DNA of 64,000 nucleotides, from IMG/VR virus record IMGVR_UViG_3300045988_165036, positions 64,001 to 128,000 of that record; one strand, written 5' to 3'. This document shows, in pieces, positions 1-40,389 of this stretch; the first letter of the stretch is position 1; every line of letters starts with the position of its first letter. Position numbers and translations under genes: made by a program. This stretch comes from a virus. The notes under the pieces are model-generated. The model was not told where the DNA came from, searched no databases, and worked only from the letters and a program-made list of their open reading frames with translations.

Positions 1-110
1 AGAAGAAGGCAAGAGAAATTCTGATTACCGAAGCGGCAGACCCGGAGAAGGTCAAGTTGGCGGATGCGACGGTTGAAACGCTGAACAAGATCCTTGCAAT
101 TCTGGATTGA
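1..110 (+). CDS. 3' end of an upstream gene (partial at window edge)
   Basis: Frame open from base 3 (...LNKILAILD), stop TGA 108-110. Confidence 0.4.
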   Translation, partial: KKAREILITEAADPEKVKLADATVETLNKILAILD

Positions 111-121
111 GGGGAATAACT

Positions 122-472
122 GTGAAATTCATTATTTCGCGCACGAGCGAGTGGGGCGACTCCTCGCCGTGCGCAGAGGCGAAGAACGAGACAATCTGGG
201 TTACGGAAAATAATAAGTGTTCAAGTTTTGAAGAATATGATAGATTGTATTCAAACAGAATACCTTGGCTATCTGTCGGCAAAAATCATAGGATTTCGTT
301 AAATGGACACATTCAGAGAGATGTTGAACAAGCGGAATGGATAGTAGATATTAATTCGATGGAAGATTTGTCGGAACTGTCCAAAAAATATGGAGAGCTA
401 ATAATAGGTACTCAGCTTTTTCCGGGGAAAATCGCTCCTTATATTGAGATTTACGATGATTATCGTGAATAA
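122..472 (+). CDS. hypothetical protein
   Basis: ORF 107..472; GTG 122 lies 7 nt after GAGGGG. Confidence 0.55.
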   Translation: MKFIISRTSEWGDSSPCAEAKNETIWVTENNKCSSFEEYDRLYSNRIPWLSVGKNHRISLNGHIQRDVEQAEWIVDINSMEDLSELSKKYGELIIGTQLFPGKIAPYIEIYDDYRE

Positions 473-571
473 AACCGCATTCAACCAATAAGACAGTAAA
501 TAAGTGAGGGATCTGTTCAAGAACTTTATAGACGGAAGACACTCGACTCCGCTCTTTCTCCGTATAACGCA

Positions 572-961
572 ATGCGTCTGTGTTGTGATAGCGAAGAGCA
601 CCCCGAAACAGTCCCTGTTATTCTTGCACTCGATGTAACGGGGTCTATGGGTAAGGCGGCGGAAAAAATCGCTAAAAAGCTCAATGTTATTATGACGAAG
701 CTTTTCGGGGAAGTAAAAGATATCGAGTTTATGACGATAGGAATTGGAGATCTCGCATATGATTCCTATCCGATTCAGGCAACGCAGTTTGAATCCGATA
801 TTCGAATTGCGGAACAGCTTGGAAAGATTTATTTCGAATTTGGTGGTGGTACGAATCCGTATGAATCATATACCGCCGCGTGGTATTTCGGACTTCATAA
901 CACGGAACTTGATTGTTGGAAGCGTAACAAGAAAGGTATTATCGTAACTATTGGCGACTAA
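572..961 (+). CDS. vWA-domain protein, part upstream of an in-frame TAA
   Basis: MIDAS-like LDVTGSMG; ends ...IIVTIGD-TAA(959-961); no clear RBS at ATG 572. Confidence 0.7.
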   Translation: MRLCCDSEEHPETVPVILALDVTGSMGKAAEKIAKKLNVIMTKLFGEVKDIEFMTIGIGDLAYDSYPIQATQFESDIRIAEQLGKIYFEFGGGTNPYESYTAAWYFGLHNTELDCWKRNKKGIIVTIGD

Positions 962-1270
962 TTTATCAACCCGATTCTGCCGTATAGAAACCTAAATGCC
1001 ATTCTTGGAAGTTCGGAACAGTCTGATGTTGAAACAAAGGCTCTTTACGAAGAGGTAGCGAAGAAGTTTGATGTTTATCATATCGACATTTCGCACCGTA
1101 CCAGATATTCGGAAGACGAACTTCATAAGTCTTGGGCTATTCTTGGAGATCATTATATCAGATCTGATCTCAATAGCACAGTAGATAACATCATTGATGT
1201 GATTAAGCGTTCGGTTGATGGCATTAGCACTGGAAATGTTTCTGTCGGAGCGGACGGAATTAGTTGGTAA
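962..1270 (+). pseudogene. same-frame continuation of the vWA gene after the internal TAA
   Basis: 102 sense codons in the frame of 572 with no ATG/GTG/TTG start near its 5' end (first in-frame one is GTG 1199); protein-like (…VYHIDISHRTRYSEDELHKSWAILGDHY…); stop 1268-1270. Confidence 0.6.
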
Positions 1271-1288
1271 AATATAGGAGATAATAAA

Positions 1289-2452
1289 ATGTTGGAAAGC
1301 GTTAAATTTGTAATCGGGTCCAATTTTGGAGACGAGGGAAAAGGTCTTGTAACAAATTATTTTTGCGAACAGGCTTTTGCTAATGAGAAGAAGTGTGTAA
1401 ACATTTTGACAAATGGCGGTTCTCAAAGAGCTCACACGGTTGAATTCCCCGATGGCAAAAGACACGTTTTCCAACATTTTGGTTCTGGAACATTTTCGGG
1501 AGCGATTACTTTTCTTTCTGGGTTTTTCATTGTTAATCCAATGACTTTCCGAACAGAGCATCAAACGCTTCTAAATATAGGAGAACATCCGGTCGTATTG
1601 TGTGATTATCATTGCCGATTTTCCACACCGTGGGATATGATGATTAATCAAATTGTCGAAGCAAGTCGCGGCGATAAAAAGCACGGTTCTTGTGGAATGG
1701 GAATTTGGGAGACGGTTGATCGGTACGGAACCAAAAATGGAATCACTATTGCCGACATCTACTATTTAAGCCGTGAATCAAGACGGTTGTATTTAAGCGG
1801 TCTTCGAGACAATTATTTCAAAAATAGATTGGAAAAATATGGGATGAAGAAAGTTCCCGATGAATGGTCGGAAATTTGGTATTCTCCAATTTTACTCGAA
1901 AATTTTCTAAACGATTTAGCCTATTTCTTTTTGAATGTTCAATTGGAATATTCGACGGCGATTAAGAAATTCGATACGGCAGTCTTTGAAAACGGACAGG
2001 GACTTTTGTTGAGCAATCCAATGTATGGAGATAACACAACTCCCTCCAACACTGGAGCAACATATGGAGCGTCAATTCTGTGGGAGCTCGGATTAGAAAA
2101 TGTAGACACCGAACTTTGCTATGTTTCTCGAACATATATGACACGCCACGGAGCCGGAGATTTTATTACGGAAAGCAAAAGTTCGACATTTGGTGGGCTT
2201 GTGGATAAAACTAATATTTCAAATCCATTTCAGGGGTCTTTGAGGTATGGAGATTTGAATACGAAGGGTTTGTTTGAGCGAGTGCGAGCAGACAGTGAAG
2301 AGGCTTCAAGAAAGTTGCATAATGTTAAAACGTCTGTTATCTTTACGCACACTAATGAATTGGGAATTGATTTGAATGGAATAAAATGTTCTGGAATTGA
2401 TACCATTTATGGCTCTGATTCTCCCTTTTCGGATTCAATTAAAATGATTTAA
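1289..2452 (+). CDS. adenylosuccinate synthetase family protein (short PurA/PurZ-like)
   Basis: N-terminal GSNFGDEGKGLVT (PurA P-loop GDEGKGK), NGGSQRAHTV in place of GGHNAGHT; RBS AGGAG. Confidence 0.7.
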   Translation: MLESVKFVIGSNFGDEGKGLVTNYFCEQAFANEKKCVNILTNGGSQRAHTVEFPDGKRHVFQHFGSGTFSGAITFLSGFFIVNPMTFRTEHQTLLNIGEHPVVLCDYHCRFSTPWDMMINQIVEASRGDKKHGSCGMGIWETVDRYGTKNGITIADIYYLSRESRRLYLSGLRDNYFKNRLEKYGMKKVPDEWSEIWYSPILLENFLNDLAYFFLNVQLEYSTAIKKFDTAVFENGQGLLLSNPMYGDNTTPSNTGATYGASILWELGLENVDTELCYVSRTYMTRHGAGDFITESKSSTFGGLVDKTNISNPFQGSLRYGDLNTKGLFERVRADSEEASRKLHNVKTSVIFTHTNELGIDLNGIKCSGIDTIYGSDSPFSDSIKMI

Positions 2453-2460
2453 AAACTTTC

Positions 2461-2498
2461 AAAACCCTCTTGACAACGAGAGGGTTTTGTGTTATACT
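2461..2498 (+). promoter_or_regulatory. sigma70/sigmaA-type promoter with the -35 box in a hairpin loop
   Basis: TTGACA 2470-2475, 17 nt spacer, TGT-TATACT 2493-2498; arms AAAACCCTC / GAGGGTTTT. Confidence 0.7.
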
Positions 2499-2528
2499 TA
2501 TGATAGAAACTGGAAGGAGAATTGATTT

Positions 2529-3071
2529 ATGTTGAATATTGGTTATTTGACTTCTGATACAACCGCTTGCGGGGATGAGATGTATACCCCGTTTTATGCA
2601 GTTGCGCCTCTTGTCAAGCACTTGAAGAATAGCGGGTATAAAACCATTTGGTGTCCGTTTGACGAGGAGTGGAGCGCGTATGTCAGAATGTTCAAAGAAG
2701 AGGGGTTTAACGTTATTCGGAGCTTGTTGTCTGATGGAAAAGACTTCTTTCAATATGAGCCCGACGAGCCGTATGATGTTATTATTAGTAATCCGCCGTT
2801 TTCAAAAAAAGACGAGGTTATTCGCCGACTTGATGAACTCGGAAAACCGTTCGCGATTCTCCTTCCGTTAAATAGTTTACAGGGGAAGTCACGATTTGAT
2901 GTTTTCAAAAATGGAATTCAACTTTTGAGTTTTGACCAACGTATCGGATTTCATACTCCAAAAAGTATGAAGACGCCCCTTGAGGGCAGCCCGTTTGCAT
3001 CTGCGTATTTTTGCCGAGATTTCTTGCCGAGATTTCTTGCCGAGAGACTTGATTGTAGAGCGGTTGGATAA
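2529..3071 (+). CDS. DNA methyltransferase (N6-A/N4-C type, NPPF motif)
   Basis: DVIISNPPFS catalytic motif IV; RBS GGAAGGAG. Confidence 0.7.
   Translation: MLNIGYLTSDTTACGDEMYTPFYAVAPLVKHLKNSGYKTIWCPFDEEWSAYVRMFKEEGFNVIRSLLSDGKDFFQYEPDEPYDVIISNPPFSKKDEVIRRLDELGKPFAILLPLNSLQGKSRFDVFKNGIQLLSFDQRIGFHTPKSMKTPLEGSPFASAYFCRDFLPRFLAERLDCRAVG
3011..3045. repeat. 13-nt tandem repeat TTGCCGAGATTTC, 2.7 copies, inside the methyltransferase 3' end
   Basis: Exact copies at 3011-3023 and 3024-3036, partial copy 3037-3045. Confidence 0.9.
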
Positions 3072-3107
3072 ATATGATAGACCTCTAATAGAGGATGGTG
3101 CGAGTGG

Positions 3108-3638
3108 ATGTTAATTGAGTGTTTTTGCGGTTGCCGGAACAAAATCGAGCAATCTTGCGCATATAAGGTTGTTCTCGGTGGAACTCGTAAAGTTTACTTT
3201 TTGAACGAACAACATTATCGCCGTTGGCAGGACAAAAATTCGGCAAAATCCAATAAGATTGATGAAAAAGAATTCGCTCCGATTTACGATGCTGTGCTCG
3301 ATATTTGCGGAGGAAAATTTACCGGACGAACCATCGTTTGGAAGGAATACTTGACTTGGAAAGAAGCCGTCGATGGGAATGGCAACAAAGTCAAGTGGTA
3401 TTTGACAGAGAATAAACGCTCGCTGTCGGAGACATTGAAGAAAAAGTATTTTGAGAGCGACTTCGGTATGATTAAATATTTGAGTGCAATTGTTAAAAGC
3501 AATGTGGCGCAGTATCGGTCGAATGAGTATATGAGTTTGCCGCTGAAAGAATCTGAATCACAGGTGAAAGAAAATACGGCGGTAATCCCGAATAGTAAAC
3601 GAAGAAAGTCGTTGGCAGAATTGGAGGACGAAGCGTAA
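3108..3638 (+). CDS. hypothetical Cys-rich protein upstream of the helicase
   Basis: ORF with N-terminal CFCGC...C cluster; position suggests a replication accessory role (inference only). Confidence 0.55.
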   Translation: MLIECFCGCRNKIEQSCAYKVVLGGTRKVYFLNEQHYRRWQDKNSAKSNKIDEKEFAPIYDAVLDICGGKFTGRTIVWKEYLTWKEAVDGNGNKVKWYLTENKRSLSETLKKKYFESDFGMIKYLSAIVKSNVAQYRSNEYMSLPLKESESQVKENTAVIPNSKRRKSLAELEDEA

Positions 3639-3640
3639 AC

Positions 3641-5248
3641 ATGTGTCAGATGGAACAGTTTGTAACAGGTGTTGTTGATCAGTATCCGCAGGAGCTTCTT
3701 GAAAATAGATTAACAATTGAAGGAAATTTAATTGCGTGCCTTTACGCAGATATTACGCTGTATGACGATATAAAATCCACGGTTTCTTCGGAAACATTTC
3801 TCTCTCGGCACGGAAGACTTCTTTTTGGAGTTGTTAAATATCTTCGCGAAAAGCACTTTAATGTAATCGATGAGGTGACAGTTCTTTCCAATTGTCCGGA
3901 AGAGGTCCTTGATCGTCTGCAGAGTATCGGTGGTTGGAAGACAATTCAGAAACTTGCTTCCACCGTTGATCTGAAGAACTGGGATGCGATTCTGGACGAG
4001 TTCAACAAAAGCAACATTATTCTGAAACTTCACAAGAATGGATTTAATCTTCTCGAAGAAGTAACGCTTGACAATGGGAAGAAGATTAAACCACTGAAAC
4101 TGTTTGAGAAGTTTAGCGCCAACAACGTTACTGAATGGTATGAAGAGAGGATTGCTAATATTTCAATTAACAATAGCGCTTCTTCGATGAAGATTATTAG
4201 TGACGGAGCTGCTTTGTTTGGGGATGAGTTTCTTGAAAGTTTGAAAGAAGACGGAGATGATGGGGTATCTCTTAGTGAGGCTGGATTGAATTTTGAAGAA
4301 AAAGAAATACCGATGTTTCCATTTTTGTCAAGACAGACATCTGGACTTCATCGTGGGACAACGAGTGCGCTCGCCTCTCACTCCGGATGCGGTAAAACAA
4401 ACCTTATGATGAACATTGTCTTTACTCTTCTTCAAAAGGGGCTTCGTGGCGTTTTTATTAGTAACGAAATGTCAGAAAGAGAACTAAAAATAATTATGAT
4501 GATGATTATTTTGGTTCAATATAGAAATTATTGGAAGATTACGAAGAAAAAGCTTCGTAATAACGATTTGACAGAGGAAGACAAAGACGAAGTTCGAGCT
4601 GCTTCGAAATGGTGGGATAATGGACCAGGAAAAAACTTAAAAATTGTCACAATGAGCGACGCCGATTCCTCTTTGACACATGATATTATTAAAAAAGAGG
4701 CTCTTCGCAATGGAATTGATTTTTATGTCGTGGACACTTTCAAGATGACACTCGAAGAGGGTGGAAACTCTGCGTTCTGGATTGATTTGATTAAAGATTC
4801 TCGAGATATGGATTCTCTCGCGAAAAAATACAATCTTATCGGTCTTTATACCATTCAGCTTGTTGCGAACAGTATTGGAAACCTGTTCCTTAATGCGTCG
4901 GCACTTTCCGGTTCGAAAGCTATAAAAGAGGTTGTCAGTTTGTTGTTTTTCCTTAGAAAATGTGAGGCAGAAGAGCTCGAAGCAGGCGGCCCATATGATT
5001 TCAGACCGTTTAGGTCGAAACAACAATCCGATGGATCGTGGAAAGATGAACCATACGATCTGGATGAAAAAGAGCGCAGAGAGGTTTATCGCGTTTTATC
5101 AGTTGACAAAAATCGATACGGAGCGGATGCTGGAGATAACGGAGTTGCGTTCTTGTATAAATATCGTGGGGATTTTTGTAAATGGGGAGAAACTTGTAAG
5201 GTTAGACCTGTTCATAAACGAATTGGACAGGATACAAACGCAAGATAA
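3641..5248 (+). CDS. dnaB: DnaB-like replicative DNA helicase
   Basis: Walker A SHSGCGKTNLMMN, Walker B-like YVVDTFK, DnaB-type N-terminal domain. Confidence 0.8.
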   Translation: MCQMEQFVTGVVDQYPQELLENRLTIEGNLIACLYADITLYDDIKSTVSSETFLSRHGRLLFGVVKYLREKHFNVIDEVTVLSNCPEEVLDRLQSIGGWKTIQKLASTVDLKNWDAILDEFNKSNIILKLHKNGFNLLEEVTLDNGKKIKPLKLFEKFSANNVTEWYEERIANISINNSASSMKIISDGAALFGDEFLESLKEDGDDGVSLSEAGLNFEEKEIPMFPFLSRQTSGLHRGTTSALASHSGCGKTNLMMNIVFTLLQKGLRGVFISNEMSERELKIIMMMIILVQYRNYWKITKKKLRNNDLTEEDKDEVRAASKWWDNGPGKNLKIVTMSDADSSLTHDIIKKEALRNGIDFYVVDTFKMTLEEGGNSAFWIDLIKDSRDMDSLAKKYNLIGLYTIQLVANSIGNLFLNASALSGSKAIKEVVSLLFFLRKCEAEELEAGGPYDFRPFRSKQQSDGSWKDEPYDLDEKERREVYRVLSVDKNRYGADAGDNGVAFLYKYRGDFCKWGETCKVRPVHKRIGQDTNAR

Positions 5249-5271
5249 AAAATGAGTAAGGAGAAAATAAA

Positions 5272-5757
5272 ATGATTATTATTGGATTTCCCGGGATTGG
5301 TAAAAGTAGCGTAACTCGCGCATATGAGGGCGACGCCAACACAACTGGTTATATCGACCTTGAAAGCAGTAATTTTGTTAAGGACGACAACTGGGTGAAG
5401 GAATACTGCGACCTTGCTCTTGACCTTGATTTACAGGGATATAATGTTTTTGTTTCGTCTCACAAGAATGTGCGAGAATATTTAGTAGAGAAACAAGACA
5501 TTTTTCCGTACATTATGGTGATATTCCCGTCGAAAGAAATACGTACCGAGTGGCTGAACAGGCTCGAATCTCGTTATATGAAGTGCAAAACTGATAAAAA
5601 CGAAAGAGCTCTAAGCTATATGCGCAACAATTTCGATGATGCCGTAGATGAAATGGAGCACGATGCGATTGTTCATAAGGTTCTGATCACCAAAGAAAAT
5701 ATGAATGATTTGAAGAAGGCGATGGTGGATTATTGGAATAAGTGGTATTCTGAATAA
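5272..5757 (+). CDS. P-loop NTPase / nucleotide kinase-like protein
   Basis: IIIGFPGIGKSS Walker A; RBS AAGGAG. Confidence 0.55.
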   Translation: MIIIGFPGIGKSSVTRAYEGDANTTGYIDLESSNFVKDDNWVKEYCDLALDLDLQGYNVFVSSHKNVREYLVEKQDIFPYIMVIFPSKEIRTEWLNRLESRYMKCKTDKNERALSYMRNNFDDAVDEMEHDAIVHKVLITKENMNDLKKAMVDYWNKWYSE

Positions 5758-5759
5758 TT

Positions 5760-6040
5760 AAAAAAATAATTTTATTTGGAGGATATTGTGGTCAACCGCC
5801 CAGTTTCCTAAATGAGATGTGGGCTTGAGTAATCGAGCCCACTGATTGATCAGACTAAGTGTTTCGAGCACTACGTTATCAAAGAATATATAGGCACCGT
5901 TGGATGTACTCTCCAGTCTGACGCACTGCGGTATGTGATTAAACAGTTCTGATGGGTAGGAACAGTGTTGCATACGAAAACCTTTGAATAACATTGTCGT
6001 GGAGTAACTACTCTAACATACAGGAGGTTATAGAAACATT
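5760..6040 (+). ncRNA. candidate IscB omega-RNA (structured leader directly upstream of iscB)
   Basis: 280 nt non-coding; 10-bp stem GTGGGCTTGA-GTAA-TCGAGCCCAC (GNRA loop) plus further hairpins; position matches known IscB loci. Confidence 0.5.
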
Positions 6041-6989
6041 GGTGTATGTGTTAAACAAACAAAGTAATCCCTTGATGCCTTGTAAAGAAGCAAAAGCAAG
6101 AAAATTGCTAAAACAAAATAAAGCTATTATAGTAAAATATGAGCCATTTACAATTCAATTGACTTTTGAGTGTGAAAATCAAACGCAAGAAATTTCTCTC
6201 GGAGTTGATGCTGGAAGTAAACACATTGGCATTTCTGCAACAACAGAGAAACAAGTTTTGTATGAAGCAGACGTTGAATTAAGAAACGATATCGTAGATA
6301 AACTCTCTTCTCGTAGAGAAGCAAGAAGAACGAGAAGAAACAGATTGAGATATCGTCCCACAAGATTCAACAATCGAGTTCATTCAAAACACAAAGGTTG
6401 GCTTGCTCCAAGCATCGAGCAGAAAATCAATTCGCATATTCAGGCAATCAAAAGACTTCATCAAATTCTTCCGATTTCAAAAATTATTGTGGAAACGGCG
6501 CAGTTTGATATTCAAAAAATTCAGAATCCAGATATTGAAGGAGAACAATATCAACAAGGTGATCAAATGGGGTTTTGGAATGTACGTGAATATGTGCTTT
6601 TCAGAGATGATCACAAGTGTCAGTATTGTAAAGGAAAATCTAAAGACAATCGATTAAATGTTCATCATATTGAGGGTCGTAAGACGGGCGGAAACGCTCC
6701 GAATAATTTAATTACGTTGTGCGAAACCTGCCATAATGATTATCATCAAGGGAAAATTCAGCTAAATATTAAGCGCGGAAAGAGCTTTCGAGATGCGACA
6801 TTTATGGGCATTATGAGAAAGACATTGTTGTTGAGATTAAGGGAAATATATCCGAATGTTCAAGAAACTTTTGGTTATATTACGAAGAACACCAGAATTG
6901 AAAATAGTCTTCCGAAAGAACATTATATAGACGCAAGATGTATTAGTGGAAATCCTTTAGCAAAACCGTTAGGATATTATCTTTATTAA
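6039..6989 (+). CDS. iscB: IscB RNA-guided nuclease (PLMP, RuvC-I, Arg-rich bridge helix, RuvC-II, HNH, RuvC-III), up to an in-frame TAA
   Basis: NPLMPC; LGVDAGSKHIG; RREARRTRRNRLRYRPTRFNNR; GWLAPSIE...VETAQFDIQK..YQQG; HKCQYC...HHIEG...NLITLCETCHNDYH; KEHYIDA; RBS AGGAGG 6022-6027, then TTG 6039 / GTG 6042. Confidence 0.85.
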   Translation: MVYVLNKQSNPLMPCKEAKARKLLKQNKAIIVKYEPFTIQLTFECENQTQEISLGVDAGSKHIGISATTEKQVLYEADVELRNDIVDKLSSRREARRTRRNRLRYRPTRFNNRVHSKHKGWLAPSIEQKINSHIQAIKRLHQILPISKIIVETAQFDIQKIQNPDIEGEQYQQGDQMGFWNVREYVLFRDDHKCQYCKGKSKDNRLNVHHIEGRKTGGNAPNNLITLCETCHNDYHQGKIQLNIKRGKSFRDATFMGIMRKTLLLRLREIYPNVQETFGYITKNTRIENSLPKEHYIDARCISGNPLAKPLGYYLY

Positions 6990-7286
6990 AAATGTGTTAG
7001 AAGACAAAATCGTAAAATGACGAAAGATAATTTTATCAGAGGTGGAGTTAAAAAAAGTAATCAGTTAGTTGGCGATGTCTTCGGATTTGGGTTATTTGAT
7101 ACGGTTGAATATCAAAAGAAGAAGTATTTTGTGTTTGGTAAACGAAAATCTGGATTTCTGGACATTAGAACACTTGATGGAGAAAAAGCTAACAACGGCT
7201 CTATAAGCTACAAAAAACTAAAATTAATTCAAAAGAATAATAATATATTAACAGAAAGGAGTTTGTCAATTCCTACGCAACCATAA
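6990..7286 (+). CDS. iscB: IscB C-terminal domain, same frame after TAA 6987-6989
   Basis: KCVRRQNRK..IRGGVKKSNQ..GFGLFDTVEY..FGKRKSGFLDIRTLDG..SYKKLKL, typical of RRXRR/IscB C-termini; 7017 is in frame with 5994. Confidence 0.75.
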   Translation, partial: KCVRRQNRKMTKDNFIRGGVKKSNQLVGDVFGFGLFDTVEYQKKKYFVFGKRKSGFLDIRTLDGEKANNGSISYKKLKLIQKNNNILTERSLSIPTQP

Positions 7287-7316
7287 AGGGATTGCTGTTT
7301 CTTTGGCAATAGTATT

Positions 7317-7481
7317 ATGAACGAGGCGGTCAAAGTTGGGTTTTATCCAAAAGATTTGTTTATACTTTTAGCGAAGAACCGGCTTGTGGCAGATTGGCAA
7401 ATTCAGAATCAAAAGAACGCAAGAAAGTTTCATAGTTATTTTTGGGTCTTCGAAAAGTCTGACAAAAAAATAGAATATTAA
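7317..7481 (+). CDS. possible small ORF (54 aa), or a remnant
   Basis: ATG 7317 to TAA 7479-7481, no RBS. Confidence 0.2.
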   Translation: MNEAVKVGFYPKDLFILLAKNRLVADWQIQNQKNARKFHSYFWVFEKSDKKIEY

Positions 7482-7486
7482 TTTTT

Positions 7487-7525
7487 GCAAAACCTCTTGA
7501 CAAACAGGAGGTTTTGCGCTATAAT
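7487..7525 (+). promoter_or_regulatory. consensus promoter with the -35 box in a 10-bp hairpin loop
   Basis: GCAAAACCTC-TTGACA(7497-7502)...GAGGTTTTGC; TATAAT 7520-7525; 17 nt spacer. Confidence 0.75.
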
Positions 7526-7570
7526 AATAGTAGAAATGAAAGATTGGCTTTATTTACAAAGGATTTTTGA

Positions 7571-7609
7571 AAAGGAGAGAAAAAAATGACTATTGTTGAC
7601 TTTTATAAG
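7571..7609 (+). other. orphaned strong RBS plus ATG (7586), probably the original primase start, cut off by the TnpB element
   Basis: AAAGGAGAGA then ATG 7586; this frame ends after 29 codons and is +1 relative to tnpB. Confidence 0.45.
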
Positions 7610-8801
7610 AAAGGTGAAAGCGATTATAAAAACAATTCGAGTAATGTTGCTTCCAAACAACAAACAGCAAACTAAATTATTTCAATATGCCAATACTGCT
7701 CGTTTTGCTTATAACTGGGCAATAGGAAGAGAACAAGAAAATTATAAGAATGGTGGAAAATTTATATCTGATGGAGACTTACGAAAAGAGTTTACACAAT
7801 TAAAGAAAACTTCTGAATATGCGTGGCTAAACAATGTTTCTAACAATGTAACAAAGCAAGCAATTAAAGATGCTTGTGAGGCGTACAAAAATTTCTTTAA
7901 GGGAATTACAAAGTCCCCACGATTTAAGAGTAAGAAATATTCAATGCCGAAATTCTACCAAGATAATGTAAGAATTCAGTTTACAGACACACATGTAAAG
8001 ATTGAGGGTTTTGCTACGTCTAAGAAAAAGAATAAGCAAAGACTTAACTGGATAAGACTTGCCGAACGCGGAAGAACACCTATTGGAAATACAAAGTATA
8101 TGAATCCACGCATTAAATATGATGGACTTAATTGGTATATCACAGTTGGAATTGAATACGAAAATTCTACCGCTCCTCCAACCAACGAAGGTGTTGGAAT
8201 CGATTTAGGCATTAAAGATTTGGCAATATGTTCTGACAAGAACAAGTATCAGAATATAAACAAAACCCAAAGAGTTAAGAAGTTAGAAAAAAGAAAGCGC
8301 AGGCTACAACGTTCCATATCAAGAAAATATGAGAATAATAAGAAAGGAGAGCGTTACTGCAAAACAAGCAATATTATAAAAAGTGAAAAAGAACTTTTAA
8401 AATTGAATCACAGACTAACGAATATTCGTCAGAACTACCTACATCAAACAACATCTGAAATTGTAAAACGAAAACCAAGTTTTATCTGTATGGAAGATTT
8501 GAATGTGAGTGGAATGATGAAGAATAAACATTTGTCTAAAGCAGTTCAGCAACAAGGGTTTTATGAATTTAGGAGACAGATTGAATATAAGTCTGAGTGG
8601 AATAACATTCCAGTAATTATAGCAGATAGATTCTTCCCGAGTTCTAAGTTATGTAGTTGTTGTGGAAATATCAAAAAGGATTTGAAACTTAGCGACCGCA
8701 TTTACAAGTGTGAATGTGGAAATATCATAGATAGAGATTATCAAGCAAGTCTAAATCTGAAAAGACATGGAGAAATGTTATTAGAACAATCTGCATTATA
8801 A
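7593..8801 (+). CDS. tnpB: TnpB (IS200/IS605 OrfB-type RNA-guided nuclease), copy 1
   Basis: N-terminal ...LLPNNKQQTKLFQYANTARFAYNWA; RuvC GIDLGIKDLA; ...CMEDLNVSGM; Zn finger CSCCG..CECG; DRDYQASLNL; likely start GTG 7614. Confidence 0.85.
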   Translation: MLTFIRKVKAIIKTIRVMLLPNNKQQTKLFQYANTARFAYNWAIGREQENYKNGGKFISDGDLRKEFTQLKKTSEYAWLNNVSNNVTKQAIKDACEAYKNFFKGITKSPRFKSKKYSMPKFYQDNVRIQFTDTHVKIEGFATSKKKNKQRLNWIRLAERGRTPIGNTKYMNPRIKYDGLNWYITVGIEYENSTAPPTNEGVGIDLGIKDLAICSDKNKYQNINKTQRVKKLEKRKRRLQRSISRKYENNKKGERYCKTSNIIKSEKELLKLNHRLTNIRQNYLHQTTSEIVKRKPSFICMEDLNVSGMMKNKHLSKAVQQQGFYEFRRQIEYKSEWNNIPVIIADRFFPSSKLCSCCGNIKKDLKLSDRIYKCECGNIIDRDYQASLNLKRHGEMLLEQSAL

Positions 8802-8956
8802 CACTTTCAAGTTAATGCAGATATGTACTGGCACGTTAGTCAGGAATTTACGCCTATAGAGTGTACAAGAACTTGTGAGTAGTATATCAGAAATGATTAC
8901 AAAAGCATATACGATGAAATAGGAATGAAACATAAAAGTTTATAACTTTTTATAAG
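7599..8956 (+). mobile_element. TnpB-only IS-like element flanked by ACTTTT(T)ATAAG direct repeats
   Basis: ACTTTTATAAG 7599-7609 and ACTTTTTATAAG 8945-8956; no tnpA. Confidence 0.5.
8802..8956 (+). ncRNA. possible 3' part of the TnpB omega/reRNA (right-end region)
   Basis: Non-coding tail directly after tnpB, by analogy with known TnpB loci. Confidence 0.3.
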
Positions 8957-8977
8957 TTTTCAGTAACGGAAGCCACG

Positions 8978-9988
8978 ATGCTCACAGATGTTAAACAAAT
9001 GTTAATAGAAAACCCAGAGCACATCGTGGAATTGCTCGAAAGGTTTGAGTTCTGCCACATCCATCTCAAACGAACAGAAATTCGGTTTGCCCGTAACGAA
9101 GAAGGTGGTCAGAACATCTCAATTCGGCTCGAAGATAATCCTTCAATTTATGTTAAAGATTTCGTAACAAATGAGAACGGCGACATTATCGCGTATATAA
9201 TGAAAAGTCGTTCGGTGAAGTTTGTCGAAGTCTTGTCGGAAATCAAGAGCGTTCTCGGGCTTGGAGACGATTGGGAGCCCCCAAAGCGCGATATGTTGTT
9301 CGGTGGATTTTATGACCGAATTGGAGAGGATAGACATATTGAGATTACGACGTATCCCGAATCGATTATGGACCAATATGTCGATAAGGGAAATCGGCGC
9401 TGGCTCGATGATAACATTTCACTTGCGGTTCAGCACGAGTTCGGGGTCAGATTTGACCCGATAGAAGACCTGATTGTGTTTCCGTGGAGGTCGCCCGTCG
9501 GAGGAGAGATTATCGCAGTAAAAGCTCGCGTTAATCACCCGTTGGAAGATGGTCAACAGAAATATTGGTATGTTTACAAGGGCGCCGTCAGTAATTCTCT
9601 TTATGGTATTATGGAGAATTATAGCGGACTGTTTGGAAACGAAATTTGTGTTGTTGAAAGCGAAAAAGCCGTCCAGCAACTGGCGACAATGGGATATCGA
9701 AACACAGTGGCTCTTGGGTCGAGCAATTTGTCAGAGGAGCAGGCTCGGCTAATTATGACGCTTTCTCCGACTTCCGTTGTGTTCTTGTTGGACGAAGGAC
9801 TGGAAAAGGAACACACGATGAAAAATGTGGAAACATTGCGTCAGTATTGCGTATTAAGAGATTTGCCGATTCGTTGGTGGAATTGGACGAAAAGCTCGGT
9901 TGTTGATGGGAGCGGGAAGAATAGTCCGACCGATTTGGGGAAAGAGAGGTTTGACAAGGTTATGAGAGAGGAGCTAGAAGTGATTTAA
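8978..9988 (+). CDS. dnaG: DNA primase (TOPRIM, DnaG-like)
   Basis: ICVVESEKAVQQL..., VVFLLDEG acidic TOPRIM motifs; no RBS before ATG 8978. Confidence 0.7.
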   Translation: MLTDVKQMLIENPEHIVELLERFEFCHIHLKRTEIRFARNEEGGQNISIRLEDNPSIYVKDFVTNENGDIIAYIMKSRSVKFVEVLSEIKSVLGLGDDWEPPKRDMLFGGFYDRIGEDRHIEITTYPESIMDQYVDKGNRRWLDDNISLAVQHEFGVRFDPIEDLIVFPWRSPVGGEIIAVKARVNHPLEDGQQKYWYVYKGAVSNSLYGIMENYSGLFGNEICVVESEKAVQQLATMGYRNTVALGSSNLSEEQARLIMTLSPTSVVFLLDEGLEKEHTMKNVETLRQYCVLRDLPIRWWNWTKSSVVDGSGKNSPTDLGKERFDKVMREELEVI

Positions 9989-10947
9989 TGGGCGCATTTA
10001 AAGATATAACTGGACAGCAATTCGGAGACTTCATCATCGACTCTTTTGACCCGACAAAAGGTAAGTATAAATATTATTGGAATTGTCATTGTGTAAAATG
10101 TGGTTATAAAAAATCAGTAGAAGGAAGCAGTATTAGAGCCGGAAATAGTACAAGATGTATTTGTGATAAGTCTTTTGGACGAAGAGAAAGTCTCGGATAC
10201 GAAAAAGATATATCTGGAAAAGTTTATGGTGGTTTAACTGTTTTGGGCTATTGCGACACGAAAAGCACACGTTCAAGATGGCTGTGTAAATGCAATTGTG
10301 GGAACGAGGAAGTTTTTAGTATTTCACAATTAAAAAGAAGAAAAAATCTGATGTGTTCCCAATGTGTGGAAAAATATAAAGATATAAGAAATGTGATTTC
10401 AGAAGAAAATTTAGACTCTAATGGGATTCCAATAAATATTGTTCAATCTACTCAAAGAAAACAAAACAAATATGAAATTCAAAACGATGAGACTATTATC
10501 AACGATAAAATTATTGTAGATAGTAAGTTTATGGATTGTTTGAAATCATTCGATAGATACATTAGTATAGACAGCCGTGGATATGCATATTTTTCATATT
10601 GTGGTCAAGATGTATATTTACACAGACTTTTGACAAACACCTCATTATTTTTCGATACGAATGGCAAAGACATAGAAATAATCGATCATATAAACAGAAA
10701 TAGATGCGATAACAGAATTGAAAATTTAAGAACGATTAAAAAATCTGAAAACTCCATCAATTGTTCAGTATATTCAAATAATAAAAGTGGGTATAAAGGT
10801 ATTTCTTGGCTTGAAAGATTACAAAAATGGCAAGTGAACATTCAATACAGAAAGATAAATTATTATGTTGGCGTGTTTGAAAATATTGATGATGCAATTT
10901 TAGCAAGAAAACGAGCAGAAATGGATTTATTTGGAAAGGTGAATTAA
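9988..10947 (+). CDS. HNH homing endonuclease with C-terminal AP2 DNA-binding domain
   Basis: HINRNRCDNRIENLR (HNH_3-like) plus SGYKGISWLERLQKWQVNIQY...VGVFENIDDAILARKRAE (AP2). Confidence 0.8.
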   Translation: MGAFKDITGQQFGDFIIDSFDPTKGKYKYYWNCHCVKCGYKKSVEGSSIRAGNSTRCICDKSFGRRESLGYEKDISGKVYGGLTVLGYCDTKSTRSRWLCKCNCGNEEVFSISQLKRRKNLMCSQCVEKYKDIRNVISEENLDSNGIPINIVQSTQRKQNKYEIQNDETIINDKIIVDSKFMDCLKSFDRYISIDSRGYAYFSYCGQDVYLHRLLTNTSLFFDTNGKDIEIIDHINRNRCDNRIENLRTIKKSENSINCSVYSNNKSGYKGISWLERLQKWQVNIQYRKINYYVGVFENIDDAILARKRAEMDLFGKVN

Positions 10948-10949
10948 AA

Positions 10950-13900
10950 ATGCAAAATCTTCATCGGCATACTTCGTATTCAAATGTTTGTATTGCAGAT
11001 TCTGCGGCAACAAATGAACAATATGCCAAAAGAGCGGTAGAATTGGGTCACAAAGTAATTAGTAGCGTCGAGCACGGGTGGCAGGGATATTATTATCAAT
11101 GTTATGAACTTGCTCAAAAATATAATCTCAAATTTGTTTTTGGAGCAGAGGCATATTGGGTAAAAGACAGGAAAAAAGAATATGAAGAAATTGATCCATT
11201 GACAGGAGAACCGTTAAAAAATAAAGACGGAACAATAAAGGCGCATAAAGATAACTCTAATTGTCATATATTACTTCTTGCAAAAACAGAAATCGGAAGA
11301 CGCGCCATCAACAAAATTCTTTCAGAGGCAAACGAAACGGGGTATTATTTTAGACCCCGTGTCGATCTCGAACTTCTTCTTTCCCTCCCTCCTGACGATG
11401 TGGTCGTAACAACTGCTTGTGTGGCATATTGGAAATATGAAGATATCGAAGATATTACTCTTCGGTTGTGGAAACATTTTGGAAAAAACTTTTATCTGGA
11501 GATCCAAGCGCATAAAACAGAACAACAGAGAGAAATCTCCCGTAGAATTCTTTCCTTGTCGCGAAGATATGGAATTGAAATGATTGTTGGTCTTGACAGT
11601 CATTACATTTATCCGGAACAGGCACAGGAGAGAGAATATATTCTTGAAGCAAAAGACGTCCATTATAAAGACGAAGAGGGGTGGTATATGGACTATCCCG
11701 ACGACGAAGAGGTTATGAGACGTTTTATGGAGCAAGGAGTTTTTACAAGGGAACAGGTTCAAAGAGCGATGGATAACACGGACATCTCTCTAACGTTTGA
11801 TGATTATGCAAAAGACAATCCTGTTTTCAGCAAAGATATTAAACTTCCTACTCTTTATCCGAATCTTTCACAAGAAGAAAGAAACAAAAAATATAGTGTT
11901 CTGATTAGTAAGCTTTTTAGAGAGTATGCAGAGAAACATCACATTACGGGAGAAGAGTATAAGAGATATCTTGAAGGAATCAAAATGGAAGTTCAGACGG
12001 TTAAAGATACCGGAATGGCCGATTACTTCCTTCTCGACTATGAAATCGTCAAAAGAGCGATTGAAAAAGGGGGCGTTTTGACAGACAGTGGAAGAGGATG
12101 TTTTACGTCTGACGCAATGGCTTTAACGATGGGCGGAATCAAACATATTAACGAAGTTAAAGTTGGAGATTTTGTAATAGATCAAAACGGAAATCCGCAA
12201 AAAGTTGTTAACACAATGGAATATGATTGCGATGAGGAAATAGTTCAACTTCTTTATGCATATGGACCAAATACTCATAATCCATTGATTTGCACAAAAG
12301 ATCACAAGATCTTGATTCATAGAAACGGGCAAAATTCTTGGATTGAAGCCGGGAAAATTCAGCAAGGAGACTATGTTTGTTCTCCGAAAATTCATTTCGA
12401 AAATCGAGCACCTGAATATATTGATTTAAATGATTATAATGTTTTTGGGTATGATTTTGACGACGAATACATTTACGAATATCGTCCAGCTGCAAATGGT
12501 GTTGTTGAATTTAACTCCATTGATGTTTCTAAACACATTGGATGTTCCAAGCCGTGGGTTTTGCAAGTCGTTAAAAATCCTAATCGCACGAAGTTTAAGC
12601 ATCCCGAATATGTGGACAGATTATTGAAATATACCGGATTTAGTTCTCTTCAAGAATATAGGGATTATTTAAAAAACTCTCATGTTATCAAGATTAAGAG
12701 ATTTATAAAAAACGACGAGCTGTTCAACACGTGGATTGGTATGATGTATGGCGATGGATGGGTTCGCGGCGCGAAAGAATCTACAGAGGTTGGAATGGCG
12801 TTTTCTACCTATGGACACAAACAGTCTTACAACAGAGAGATTTGTATTAAAATGATCGAACGTTTTGGTGCTCCGTATAATTGTGCCATCCATAAAACAA
12901 AACAATTGGAACAAATTATTATGAAGAGCCGCATCGTTAATGAATTTTGTAAAAATTTTCTATTCACAAGTAAGAAGGGAAAGGCAAAAATCTTTAATCA
13001 AGATTTATTTTATCAATCCGAAAATAACTTAAGCGCGCTATTAAACGGTTTAACGATTACTGATGGGAGCATGGGAAAAGAAAAAAGAAGAGACAGCTTT
13101 GACAACACGTCTCAAAGCATTGTTGGAGCATATAAAATTTTAGTGTCGGCAGTCTCTCCTTGCCCCACAAGTCTGCTTGTCAGAAACGCATACGAAGATA
13201 GTAGAGGATATCATTCTCAGACTGGTTATAAAATAAGAGTTATGAAAGATACGGACACTCATGTGCTTTCGGCGTATAGAACTCTTTCTGACAACAACTA
13301 TGTTTATCTTCCTGTTTCTCAAATTAAGGCAATTGAGAAAAGCAAACGAAAAGTATATGACATTACCGTTGAAAATTCCCACAGTTATGTATTAGATAGC
13401 ATAGTTGTTCATAATTCATCAGTTGGATATTTCACAAACACTCTTCTTGGTTTTTCAAAAGTCGATAGATTTCAAAGTCCGATAACTCTTTATCCTGAAC
13501 GATTTATTAGTAAAACAAGAATTCTAGAAACCCATTCTCTTCCAGATATTGATATGAACTGGGGAACCCCCGAAATTGCAGAAGAAGCACAGAAAGAAAT
13601 TCTTGGAGACGACCACGCAATTCCAATGATCGCCTTCGGAACCTGTAAAAAGAAGTCGGCGTTTAAATTGTTCGCTCGTTCTCAAAATATGGATTTCGAA
13701 CTGGCAAACACCATCTCTTCGCAAATTGCAGATTATGAAGAAGCAGTTAAAAACGCAGAAGATGATGATAAAGATCAGATTGATATTTATGATTTTGTAG
13801 ATAAAAAATATTCCAACTATATTGAACAGAGCAAAAAGTATTGGGGCATTATTATGGATAAGAAGAAAGCTCCTTGTGCCTTTCTTCTTTATCAAGGCAA

Positions 13901-15554
13901 TATCCGAGAAGAAATTGGTCTGATTAAATGTAAGTCGGAATCAACAGGAAAAGAATTTTTAACAGCCGTTGTAGACGGAGCGATTGCAGAAAATTATAAA
14001 TTTCTAAAAAACGATATTCTTTGTGTAAGTATTGTTCTTTTGGTTGATAAGATTTATCGTAGAATTGGAATTCCGCACAAAACGGTTGAAGAACTGAAAG
14101 ATTTCGTTAAAAACGATCCAAAAACTTGGGACATTTATAAAAACGGATATACTCTTGGGGTTAATCAGTGTGAGCAAGTAAGTTCTGCAAAGAAAATGAT
14201 GCGCTTTCAAGCAAAAAACATTTCAGAACTTTCGGCGTGGATTGCCGCAATTCGCCCTGCTTTCAAGTCGATGTACTCCAAGTTTGAATCGAGGGAATCT
14301 TTTAGTTATGGAATTCCTGCCTTTGACAAACTCCTACAGACAGAAGAACTTCCGCAGTCGTGGATTTTGTATCAGGAGCAGTCGATGTCTGTTCTTTCGT
14401 ATGCAGGATTTCCGATGGATGAATGTTATGGAATCATAAAGGCAATTGCTAAAAAACACCCCGAAAAGGTTCGTCCGTTGAAGGATAGATTTATCGAAGG
14501 ATTCAAAAAGAGGATTGTTACAGAGGAAGGAATTGAAGAAACTCAAGCGCAGGAAATGAGCGAACGGGTTTGGCAAATCATCAACGACTCTTGCGGGTAC
14601 GGTTTCAATTCTGCTCACGCATATTGTATGGCAATCGATAGTCTTTCTTGCGCAATGTTGAAAGCGAATTATCCATACGAATTTTATGAGGTGCTTTTAC
14701 AGTTCCATTCAGATAGAGGAGAAAAAGATAAGGTTGGCGCTCTAAAAGCGGAAATGAAAAAGGCTTTTGGAATTCAAGAAGGTCCATATCGATTTGGAGA
14801 AGATAACCGAAAGTTTAATGCAATTCCGGAAAGAGGAATTATTCAACCGTCTCTCTTGTCAATTAAGGGATTGAGTCAGGATTTGGCAAACGACCTTTAT
14901 GAACTTTCTAAAACAAAACGATTCGATAATTTTATAGACCTGTTGAGAGAATTCGATCATATGAAATCAATGAATGTTGCGAAGTTGGATACATTGATTA
15001 AACTCAATTATTTCTCGCAATTCGCACCTATTGGAAAACTTCTGAACATTGTCGAGCTCTATAATAAGTTCGGAACCAGCAAAACACTCAAAGAATCTGA
15101 CGTTTTGTCTCTTCCAACGCCTATTCAAGAAGTTATTGCAAAATATACCGTTAAACCGAAAACACAGTATAAAATCACAGATAGCGACGGAATGCTCCGG
15201 GAACTCGCGGGGTTGGTTGGAGAACGCCCGATTACGATGATGATGCGGCTGGAATGGGAGCAACAGTATTTGGGTTATTGCGCTTCTACCGACCCATCGC
15301 AACAGGGAAGTTGGTTAGTTCTGGACGCCGATACTAAATATTCTCCGAAGTTGACAATTTTTTCTATTTGGAGTGGAGAACAGCGTGTTGTTAAAGTCTC
15401 GAAGCGCGACTTCCAATCCAATCCTCTCACCAAAGGTGATACAATTCGTCTGACTATCGAACAACGTCCGAAGGCGAAGCTCGTAGATGGACAGTGGGTT
15501 AAGGACGAAAACGTTAAAGAAGATTGGCTAAAATATTATTCAATTGTAAAGTAA
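10950..15554 (+). CDS. dnaE: DNA polymerase III alpha subunit (DnaE-like, PHP domain), containing an intein
   Basis: HRHTSYSN PHP motif; extein junction SGRG|SSVGYF corresponds to DnaE GPGRGSAAGS. Confidence 0.85.
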   Translation: MQNLHRHTSYSNVCIADSAATNEQYAKRAVELGHKVISSVEHGWQGYYYQCYELAQKYNLKFVFGAEAYWVKDRKKEYEEIDPLTGEPLKNKDGTIKAHKDNSNCHILLLAKTEIGRRAINKILSEANETGYYFRPRVDLELLLSLPPDDVVVTTACVAYWKYEDIEDITLRLWKHFGKNFYLEIQAHKTEQQREISRRILSLSRRYGIEMIVGLDSHYIYPEQAQEREYILEAKDVHYKDEEGWYMDYPDDEEVMRRFMEQGVFTREQVQRAMDNTDISLTFDDYAKDNPVFSKDIKLPTLYPNLSQEERNKKYSVLISKLFREYAEKHHITGEEYKRYLEGIKMEVQTVKDTGMADYFLLDYEIVKRAIEKGGVLTDSGRGCFTSDAMALTMGGIKHINEVKVGDFVIDQNGNPQKVVNTMEYDCDEEIVQLLYAYGPNTHNPLICTKDHKILIHRNGQNSWIEAGKIQQGDYVCSPKIHFENRAPEYIDLNDYNVFGYDFDDEYIYEYRPAANGVVEFNSIDVSKHIGCSKPWVLQVVKNPNRTKFKHPEYVDRLLKYTGFSSLQEYRDYLKNSHVIKIKRFIKNDELFNTWIGMMYGDGWVRGAKESTEVGMAFSTYGHKQSYNREICIKMIERFGAPYNCAIHKTKQLEQIIMKSRIVNEFCKNFLFTSKKGKAKIFNQDLFYQSENNLSALLNGLTITDGSMGKEKRRDSFDNTSQSIVGAYKILVSAVSPCPTSLLVRNAYEDSRGYHSQTGYKIRVMKDTDTHVLSAYRTLSDNNYVYLPVSQIKAIEKSKRKVYDITVENSHSYVLDSIVVHNSSVGYFTNTLLGFSKVDRFQSPITLYPERFISKTRILETHSLPDIDMNWGTPEIAEEAQKEILGDDHAIPMIAFGTCKKKSAFKLFARSQNMDFELANTISSQIADYEEAVKNAEDDDKDQIDIYDFVDKKYSNYIEQSKKYWGIIMDKKKAPCAFLLYQGNIREEIGLIKCKSESTGKEFLTAVVDGAIAENYKFLKNDILCVSIVLLVDKIYRRIGIPHKTVEELKDFVKNDPKTWDIYKNGYTLGVNQCEQVSSAKKMMRFQAKNISELSAWIAAIRPAFKSMYSKFESRESFSYGIPAFDKLLQTEELPQSWILYQEQSMSVLSYAGFPMDECYGIIKAIAKKHPEKVRPLKDRFIEGFKKRIVTEEGIEETQAQEMSERVWQIINDSCGYGFNSAHAYCMAIDSLSCAMLKANYPYEFYEVLLQFHSDRGEKDKVGALKAEMKKAFGIQEGPYRFGEDNRKFNAIPERGIIQPSLLSIKGLSQDLANDLYELSKTKRFDNFIDLLREFDHMKSMNVAKLDTLIKLNYFSQFAPIGKLLNIVELYNKFGTSKTLKESDVLSLPTPIQEVIAKYTVKPKTQYKITDSDGMLRELAGLVGERPITMMMRLEWEQQYLGYCASTDPSQQGSWLVLDADTKYSPKLTIFSIWSGEQRVVKVSKRDFQSNPLTKGDTIRLTIEQRPKAKLVDGQWVKDENVKEDWLKYYSIVK
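12099..13415 (+). mobile_element. intein (439 aa) with LAGLIDADG homing endonuclease
   Basis: Starts CFTSDAM; TKDHKIL block B; LAGLIDADG motifs WIGMMYGDGW and LLNGLTITDGS; ends VYDITVENSHSYVLDSIVVHN, +1 residue Ser. Confidence 0.85.
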
Positions 15555-15604
15555 AGGAGAAAAGTTTATGAATGATTCACTAAAGTGGAATAGGAGGGCG
15601 AGCA

Positions 15605-15932
15605 ATGGAGCAGGTACATTAACGCGGACACTTTTCAAAAGTTTCTCGAAGACAAAATTGAAGAAGCAAAACTTGACGAGGAGAACAGTTGCGGGGATGT
15701 ATGCTACGATATGGCAGTCGAGGCAATAGAGTGTGCCTTTAGAGAGATATTGTCGGAATTAAAAAACGAGCCAACCGCCGACGTAGAAGAAATTAAACAC
15801 GCTAAATGGGAAATGATCGGCAATTATAAGGTCGAATGTACAAATTGTCATCACATTAGAGACATCAAAACACAATGCGGTTGGAATTTCTGCCCAGCTT
15901 GCGGCGCGAAGATGATGGAGGAAGAAAAATGA
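15605..15932 (+). CDS. Zn-ribbon protein (paralog of 16533), frame disrupted right after its ATG
   Basis: AGGAGG 15592-15597, ATG 15605; the protein-like frame (SRYINADTFQKF...CTNCHH...CPACGAKM) is +1 from that ATG. Confidence 0.55.
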
Positions 15933-16210
15933 CAAACAAAGAAGCGATAAAATGTATTGAGAAACACAATGAACACCACAGCAAAAGCGAGCCATTCGCA
16001 GTCTATATAACGGAGGCATTAGCAATGGGGGTTGAAGCTCTCGAAAAACAGATTCCGAAAAAACCAAAACCAGACAAGGAATACCTTCTTGACAGAGTAT
16101 GCCCCAGATGCGGTTGTTATCTTGGAAATGTGCAATTTGTACCGAATAATTATCTTTATTGTCAACGGTGCGGTCAAGCGTTAGATTTGAGTGAAGAAAA
16201 TGAGAAATAA
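15929..16210 (+). CDS. hypothetical Zn-ribbon protein
   Basis: ATGA overlap with the previous stop; CPRCG...CQRCG. Confidence 0.6.
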   Translation: MTNKEAIKCIEKHNEHHSKSEPFAVYITEALAMGVEALEKQIPKKPKPDKEYLLDRVCPRCGCYLGNVQFVPNNYLYCQRCGQALDLSEENEK

Positions 16211-40312: not shown

Positions 40313-40389
40313 TGTCGAGTAGCCAAGCGGTAAAGGTGACTGGTTTTGACCCAGTTATTACGTAGATTCGAATCCTGCCTCGACAGCCA
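40313..40389 (+). tRNA. trnQ: tRNA-Gln (anticodon UUG), CCA encoded
   Basis: U1-A72 acceptor TGTCGAG/CTCGACA; D region GCCAAGCGGTAA; ACTGG-TTTTGAC-CCAGT; GCCA end. Confidence 0.85.

Follow-up and report, generated by a model that had tools for sequence, protein, structure and literature searches.

An IscB/omega-RNA element inside a gut phage that has very probably become a pseudogene only recently

The stretch of DNA considered here (in the following, the window) comprises 64,000 nucleotides (nt), namely positions 64,001 to 128,000 of the IMG/VR virus record IMGVR_UViG_3300045988_165036, and all coordinates count from its first letter. It belongs to an uncultivated gut phage of about 134 kb, in whose replication-gene region sits an element that carries an omega RNA together with a gene for IscB. 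IscB/omega-RNA transposons are the ancestors of Cas9. In the window copy, the coding frame of iscB is interrupted by one in-frame stop codon, and the question arises what has become of the element as a consequence. Its parts, including the transposon-adjacent motif (TAM) and the open reading frame (ORF) before the stop, are the following:

5775-5790, plus strand: putative 16-nt guide, TTTGGAGGATATTGTG, in the phage flank abutting the 5' transposon end
5791-6011, plus strand: HEARO/omega RNA (Rfam RF02033), from an Rfam scan of 5000-9500
5819-5842, plus strand: hairpin of the omega RNA, 10 bp, capped by a GUAA tetraloop, read off the sequence
6022-6027, plus strand: Shine-Dalgarno sequence AGGAGG of iscB, 11 nt 5' of the start codon
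6039-6989, plus strand: truncated iscB ORF, 316 codons plus TAA, starting with TTG 6039
6987-6989, plus strand: nonsense TAA at codon 317, CAA or CAG in relatives
6990-7286, plus strand: untranslated 3' part of iscB in the same frame, 98 codons plus TAA 7284-7286
7250-7316, minus strand: transposon left-end region, overlapping the 3' end of iscB, with conservation among copies up to 7316-7321
7317-7321, plus strand: TAM ATGAA (reverse complement TTCAT), part of the target gene, placed by the end motif and the empty site
7317-7481, plus strand: C-terminal remnant of a DNA methyltransferase gene, 54 codons (phrog_24333)

By descent the locus is an IscB gene, and what it now encodes is an incomplete IscB. 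The 316 codons before the stop specify PLMP (residues 11-14), RuvC-I, the bridge helix (RRXRR), RuvC-II, HNH and the catalytic helix of RuvC-III, and the TTG at 6039 aligns with Met1 of the homologues (MVYVLN). The Pfam family RRXRR (PF14239) is matched over its full profile at residues 2-174 (2.8e-66), HNH (PF01844) is matched between RuvC-II and RuvC-III at residues 194-237 (2.8e-9), and the PHROG family phrog_119 matches at 2.4e-68. Among structures in the PDB, the best matches are those of OgeuIscB (7UTN, 7XHT and newer entries), with 1e-45 for the single sequence and 5e-64 to 1e-66 for a profile built from phage homologues. D57, E152, H209/H210, H295 and D298 are invariant in the homologue alignments and align with OgeuIscB, and the RuvC catalytic Asp/Glu/His/Asp (D57, E152, H295, D298) all lie within the truncated product.

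When the two pieces of the gene were joined into one query, at least 8000 scored homologues were obtained, the best of which, among the matches listed, are intact proteins of 415 amino acids (aa) with 88-94% identity, and many of these are encoded on contigs 100-190 kb long. Across the family, the ratio of non-synonymous to synonymous substitution rates (dN/dS) is 0.05-0.20 both before and after codon 317, and the intact copies are therefore under purifying selection. The Pfam matches, the homology to OgeuIscB and the large number of homologues thus bear out the IscB identity that the original prediction had assigned to this ORF from its letters. The domain order given there likewise holds from PLMP to RuvC-III, but the lost C-terminus is larger than the small barrel it described, as it includes the equivalents of a RuvC strand and of two further domains (see below).

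The non-coding leader of iscB (5758-6038, 281 nt) follows a 161-codon ORF that ends at 5757. HEARO, the RNA now called IscB omega RNA, is matched in this leader over all positions of the model (1-211 of 211) with 128.6 bits against a gathering score of 83 (E 1.8e-27), and its 3' end is separated by 27 nt from the start codon of iscB, which lies directly 3' on the same strand. IMG/VR holds 37 viral loci that encode IscB relatives; 15 of these were scanned, and each carries a full-length HEARO just 5' of the ORF (84-146 bits). In an RNAalifold alignment of 16 sequences, compensatory double changes preserve the pairing at 26 of the 49 predicted pairs. The suspected omega-RNA-like character of the leader is hence confirmed, and the covariance whose absence in homologs was to count against it is present. 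A 10-bp stem with a GNRA loop had also been seen correctly; it lies at 5819-5842, one base off the 5818-5841 given at the time, and in the HEARO consensus its counterpart is the second hairpin. The minus-strand single-stranded DNA of 5785-5850 folds around the same stem (z = -2.6).

The omega RNA gene is thus undamaged, and the RNA may still be made. No promoter-like site and no terminator were found between the upstream gene and the omega RNA, which points to transcriptional read-through from the upstream helicase/P-loop operon as its probable source. Following the rule for IscB elements that the guide is the flank adjoining the omega-RNA scaffold (Meers et al., 2023, PMC10055086), the guide would correspond to 5775-5790, whereby its length of 16 nt is taken over from OgeuIscB.

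The ends of the element can be delimited from both sides. In copies that sit in unrelated contexts (L005, L006, L007, L009, L013, L018), similarity to the window starts at about 5791 and ends at 7320-7321, and the motif at the TAM-side end is ATGAA in eight of nine copies and ATGAC in the ninth. The reverse complement of ATGAA, TTCAT, has been reported for GstIscB as the wild-type TAM (Meers et al., 2023, PMC10055086). To the right of the element, the 54-codon remnant matches the DNA methyltransferase family phrog_24333 (4.1e-14, profile positions 182-229 of 238) and aligns to residues 153-207 of an intact 208-aa methyltransferase allele. A protein search with the 54-aa remnant recovered uninterrupted methyltransferase alleles in many phages (L046-L059), in which GTGTTTATT, or in a longer form CACGTGTTTATT, runs directly into ATGAATGAGG. 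At this empty site the protein reads SHVFI/MNEA and the DNA TTTATT/ATGAAT, with the slash marking the junction.

As the uninterrupted alleles are joined immediately before ATGAA, the element extends from 5791 to 7316 and ATGAA belongs to the target gene. We conclude that 5791-7316 is a 1526-bp non-autonomous, TnpA-less element of the IS200/IS605 family that consists of an omega RNA and iscB. A target-site duplication was not seen at the insertion. The search for the empty site with an exact DNA pattern of the right flank returned only the contig of L004, a sister phage described below. The right end of the element has a subterminal hairpin (z -2.6). At the left end, a subterminal hairpin is pronounced in L005 (z -4.0) and weak in L013 and in the window (z about -0.5), where it is degenerate. 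TnpA was matched neither in the window nor in related loci, which is a weak test as the query was a 93-aa fragment (truncated OrfA) from phage c-st. Within the 64-kb window of the approximately 134-kb phage, no second IscB or HEARO was found that could complement the element in trans.

The internal stop is real and its origin can be traced to a single base. The identical 316-aa product is encoded on 30 contigs from different samples in ENA and Logan assemblies, the longest of about 134 kb, and the exact 89-aa ORF that starts downstream at ATG 7017, inside 6990-7286, is likewise found on 30 contigs. Two contigs that were fetched, L002 and L003, stem from different samples (SRR2236714/ERZ963251 and ERZ2663838) and are 100% identical to the window over their overlap with positions 1-16000. 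That separate assemblies agree in this way shows that the TAA does exist in the phage, and the TAA at 6987-6989 that the original prediction had read in frame, followed by 98 further codons up to TAA 7284-7286, is accordingly not replaced by a sense codon. Codon 317 reads CAA in the sister phages L001 and L004 as well as in L006, CAG in L005 and TAA in the window, and the residue aligned to it is Gln in 15 of 17 close homologues. The stop therefore arose by one C-to-T transition in a CAA codon for Gln317.

The mutation is also recent, and it is present in every copy of this phage strain that was found. Relative to the two intact copies closest to it, the window carries 27 synonymous and eight non-synonymous private changes in codons 1-316 and only one, synonymous, in codons 318-415, and neither a frameshift nor a second stop occurs in the 98 codons after the TAA. 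It is this lack of decay in the downstream codons that identifies the stop as young. A further observation on the same codons is that synonymous divergence between the window and L004 amounts to 0.44 over codons 1-316 (6039-6986) and to 0.09 over codons 318-415 (6990-7283). The gene hence looks mosaic, which suggests recombination between IscB copies.

Stops of this kind are not confined to one lineage. Of the other viral loci that were translated, three of 34 show a single in-frame stop in an otherwise full-length gene, at codon 144 (TGA, L007), codon 276 (TAA, L011) and codon 377 (TAA, L012), and the 90% cluster to which the window protein belongs includes many members of fragment length. 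Nonsense loss of phage IscB thus looks frequent. Across the loci, the stops show no preference for the boundary of the TAM-interaction domain (TID), which favours an ordinary loss of function over selection for a shortened protein.

In order to see what the truncation removes, the protein was mapped by profile alignment to OgeuIscB, using the residue numbers of PMC13284715, according to which the linker between RuvC and the P1-interaction domain (P1D) spans C378-N382, P1D ends at about residue 433 and the TID follows. Codon 317 aligns to about residues 363-367 of OgeuIscB, with the window stretch VRRQNRKMTKDN opposite FRRHDRQACHKAN, and the linker residues 378-382 align to window residues 327-331. 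R321, N324 and R325 of the last conserved RuvC strand, which are invariant or nearly so, all lie past the stop. On this mapping, the 316-aa product lacks the last conserved RuvC strand, P1D and TID, and P1D and TID are consequently no longer in the same polypeptide as the rest of IscB; their coding sequence is still in frame but cut off. An AlphaFold2 model of an intact relative (P0001, alignment of 57 sequences) was unusable for this purpose (mean pLDDT 48.5, pTM 0.31). Judging from the missing parts, the 316-aa product should be unable to recognise and open double-stranded targets.

Taken together, we consider it very likely that the window holds a recently pseudogenised IscB/omega-RNA element inside a gut phage. 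In the intact form of the element, the omega RNA would be transcribed by read-through from the upstream operon and would carry the flanking 16 nt or so (5775-5790) as its guide. Intact IscB would then cut DNA in which a sequence matching the guide is followed by the TAM, that is, either the empty site after rejoining or its equivalent in a sister phage that infects the same cell, and recombinational repair after cutting would copy the element back or across, a process known as homing. In the lineage of the window, the change of Gln317 (CAA) to TAA by C-to-T leaves a product of 316 aa that retains PLMP, the bridge helix, HNH and the RuvC catalytic residues.

Several points weigh against this reading and should be named. 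The lone substitution after the stop cannot separate ongoing constraint on the 3' part from mere recency. The truncated allele is found in so many samples that it can at least not be strongly deleterious, and it could even be that the truncation is favoured, for example because it sheds a nuclease that is costly to the phage. Lastly, an engineered IscB without the TID folds well and binds single-stranded targets, and a truncated protein may by this analogy not necessarily be inert.

From our point of view, two ways can be imagined in which the locus would have kept a function. The first is that full function is retained at a low level, either because the UAA is read through, a candidate for which would be the near-cognate tRNA-Gln(UUG) that the phage itself encodes (40313-40389), or because translation reinitiates at ATG 7017 and yields a split enzyme in which an 89-aa fragment with P1D and TID joins the 316-aa fragment on the omega RNA. 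The intact downstream frame would allow both; ATG 7017 (Met327) is in frame and lies opposite the beginning of the RuvC-P1D linker in OgeuIscB, and the 89-aa ORF is called as a gene on the same 30 contigs. However, TAA is the preferred stop of this phage. Both release factors recognise UAA, and no stop codon is less leaky. A suppressor tRNA was not found in the window, and the ability of tRNA-Gln(UUG) to pair with the UAA of iscB in a near-cognate manner is probably a coincidence. Reinitiation, in turn, would have to proceed with only AGAAGA, 11 nt upstream of ATG 7017, as no good Shine-Dalgarno sequence is present there. Met327 is merely an ancestral residue that is found in close relatives as well (KMTKD), and a split enzyme would be without residues 317-326 and hence without the invariant R321, N324 and R325. 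The stops of the other lineages, moreover, lie at unrelated places. We therefore regard low-level retention of full function by either route as improbable. The original prediction had left the choice between a freshly inactivated nuclease and one that depends on readthrough; fresh inactivation is now clearly favoured by the single C-to-T change, the one synonymous change downstream of it, the use of TAA as the main stop, the lack of a suppressor tRNA and the unrelated stops elsewhere, and readthrough is disfavoured accordingly.

The second way would be a functional truncation, namely that the 316-aa IscB, or a pair of the 316-aa and the 89-aa products, assembles with the omega RNA and, guided by it, binds or cuts single-stranded RNA or DNA or acts as a repressor. 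Such a protein would be the natural counterpart of the engineered, TID-less R-IscB or of the TldR regulators derived from TnpB. What makes the idea attractive is that OgeuIscB, once its TID is removed, remains stable, binds single strands exclusively and ceases to engage double-stranded DNA (PMC13284715). In the window, PLMP, the bridge helix, HNH and the RuvC catalytic residues are all kept, the omega RNA is intact and the allele is found on 30 contigs.

On the other hand, the cut goes deeper than in R-IscB. A counterpart of the latter would have a complete RuvC and P1D, would lack only the TID and would be conserved across lineages; here, the stop precedes the RuvC-P1D linker, so that P1D and the last RuvC strand (R321, N324, R325) are gone as well. 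The allele is confined to one clonal phage strain, as can be seen from the 100% identity of L002 and L003 to the window, and the stops of other lineages fall at codons 144, 276 and 377. Furthermore, the 3' coding part is perfectly kept, which one would expect if the mutation were very young but not if a shorter gene had become established. A single-strand binder, cutter or repressor made from the truncated protein is hence very unlikely in our view, and the same low probability applies to a kinship in function with R-IscB or TldR and to a regulator assembled from both fragments. If it did exist, it would be the first natural IscB to have lost the module for double-strand and TAM recognition, which the authors of R-IscB sought in vain. 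Readthrough, a split enzyme and a functional truncation, even if taken jointly, account for only a small part of what we would expect to be true of this locus.

Two further explanations can be rejected, each with next to no probability left. A sequencing or assembly error in an intact gene is contradicted by the 30 contigs that encode the exact truncated product, including the two fetched ones that are identical to the window. Reading of TAA as Gln under an alternative genetic code would agree with the Gln found at the aligned position in homologues, and stop-codon recoding is known from some gut phages; but TAA ends 45 of the 73 long ORFs of the window (TGA 17, TAG 11), among them the genes that flank the element, standard-code ORFs span 85% of the window, and its only tRNAs are Leu(UAA), Gln(UUG) and Asn(GUU), none with the anticodon UUA. 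The phage recodings known to us concern TAG or TGA and not TAA. Frameshifting was also considered and is ruled out, as both ORFs are in the same frame.

The history of the element can be followed by comparison with two sister phages, L001 (a Logan contig of 106 kb) and L004 (an IMG/VR contig of 122 kb), whose identity to the window is about 93-95% in the surroundings of the element. Both share its right junction on the TAM side and carry an intact IscB, and the insertion predates the split of the three phages, having been present in their common ancestor. On the guide side, L001 retains methyltransferase residues 1-39 and about 131-150 and L004 retains residues 1-39, whereas the window retains none and has lost two small ORFs as well. 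The pieces of the interrupted gene lie at 9578-9762 and 11276-11440 in L001 and at 3591-3707 and 5276-5440 in L004. Due to this different loss of the 5' methyltransferase fragment, each of the three phages has a different guide. We also considered whether the flank losses are nested and always end at ATGA-like motifs, which fits the window and L001 and not clearly L004, and is thus not claimed. L001, L004 and another viral contig contain the putative guide TTTGGAGGATATTGTG with ATGAC directly behind it. An active IscB of the window phage would have found targets in its sisters, which would fit the 'non-restorative homing' between co-infecting phages that has been discussed (PMC13565253).

The wider surroundings of the element contain the following features:

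1289-2452, plus strand: adenylosuccinate-synthetase homologue (PF00709, 1.7e-25; PurZ-type phrog_1211, 1.2e-47)
7497-7525, plus strand: perfect consensus promoter, TTGACA-17 nt-TATAAT, just 5' of tnpB
7593/7644-8801, plus strand: TnpB gene with HTH_OrfB_IS605, OrfB_IS605 and Cas12f1-like_TNB domains
8853-8925, plus strand: RAGATH-18 RNA, 3' of tnpB (69.4 bits)
9988-10947, plus strand: HNH_3 endonuclease gene between the primase and polymerase genes, with no counterpart there in L001
10950-15554, plus strand: DNA polymerase III alpha gene with an intein (1534 aa, compared with 1095 aa intein-free in L001)
25068-26123, plus strand, and 56302-56883, minus strand: TnpB-like stretches, 31-35% identical to the TnpB of 7644-8798
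40313-40389, plus strand: tRNA-Gln(UUG), decoding CAA and near-cognate to UAA

The TnpB gene lies in tandem with iscB on the same strand, and not back to back as had been supposed from the letters, and the two guides face outward. The RAGATH-18 RNA behind it is of the reRNA type that has been described for IS607 TnpBs (PMC11061315). The region 7548-8958 is absent from the sister phage L001, and 7599-8969 is 79% identical to a part of Enterocloster phage CB457P1. The promoter in front of tnpB sits in a segment of about 60 nt that is repeated in sister phages (L001 4657-4717; L005 1848-1908), in L005 directly 5' of the IscB omega RNA. Of the two further TnpB-like stretches, the one on the minus strand (56302-56883) matches only residues 179-384 of the TnpB encoded at 7644-8798.

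With respect to the flanking genes, the 'kinase' proposed upstream has no support, the 161-aa product being a P-loop protein with no Pfam hit and a match only to a PHROG of unknown function, whereas the downstream primase does match DNA primase PHROGs (1.5e-18). The replication module hosts a cluster of several selfish elements, the HNH_3 endonuclease gene and the intein among them. The PurZ-type homologue at 1289-2452 hints at a genome with 2-aminoadenine (Z), and the gene is missing at the corresponding place in L001.

Overall, the correct annotation of the locus would be an IscB pseudogene with an omega RNA, and not two 'hypothetical' genes or an 'HNH endonuclease'. The finding that the IscB family is common in large gut phages and under strong purifying selection supports a use of OMEGA nucleases in homing between co-infecting phages. 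As the sister phages share the junction of the window and differ in having an intact nuclease (L001, L004) or a broken one (window) and in their guides, they represent a natural comparison set in which it can be tested whether IscB activity affects the inheritance of the element. The truncated allele is, furthermore, widespread enough to bear on the question of whether TID-less IscBs exist in nature, even though the evidence points to a pseudogene.

Among known systems, the closest reference is OgeuIscB with its omega RNA (7UTN, 7XHT), the reference IscB of the OMEGA systems. The domain order from PLMP to RuvC-III is common to both, the catalytic residues align, and the omega RNA is located directly upstream on the same strand as in the window. 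In contrast to OgeuIscB with its 496 aa, the window family has 415 aa, a diverged C-terminal region and a phage as its carrier, and the window copy itself ends at about Ogeu residues 363-367, which would leave it without the last RuvC strand, P1D and TID.

At the level of the transposon, the ISGst IscB elements of Geobacillus stearothermophilus are comparable, which are also non-autonomous members of the IS200/IS605 family with a HEARO bounded by the right end, a guide derived from the flank and the TAM TTCAT, found in the window as ATGAA at 7317-7321 on the IscB strand (PMC10055086). They differ from the window in that their replicon is a chromosome and not a phage and in that the nuclease gene is broken in the latter.

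That phages carry IscB is already known as a sequence fact. The deposited homologues, namely CST143 of Clostridium phage c-st, gp19 of Ralstonia phage Heva and those of Staphylococcus Twortvirinae (phrog_119), have 411-458 aa, match over residues 1-329 and are 33-50% identical to the window protein, but unlike the window copy they are intact, and they are annotated only as HNH endonucleases. At the DNA level, a megablast search against deposited phages with the IscB region as the query matched only the TnpB region, and a 22-kb stretch gave no match.

The engineered R-IscB (PMC13284715), finally, is likewise an IscB without the TID that is accompanied by an intact omega RNA, and its authors found no natural TID-less IscB. 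In R-IscB, RuvC and P1D are complete (to about residue 433), whereas the window product breaks off some 15 residues short of the RuvC-P1D linker, and while R-IscB was designed, the allele in the window is a young nonsense mutation.

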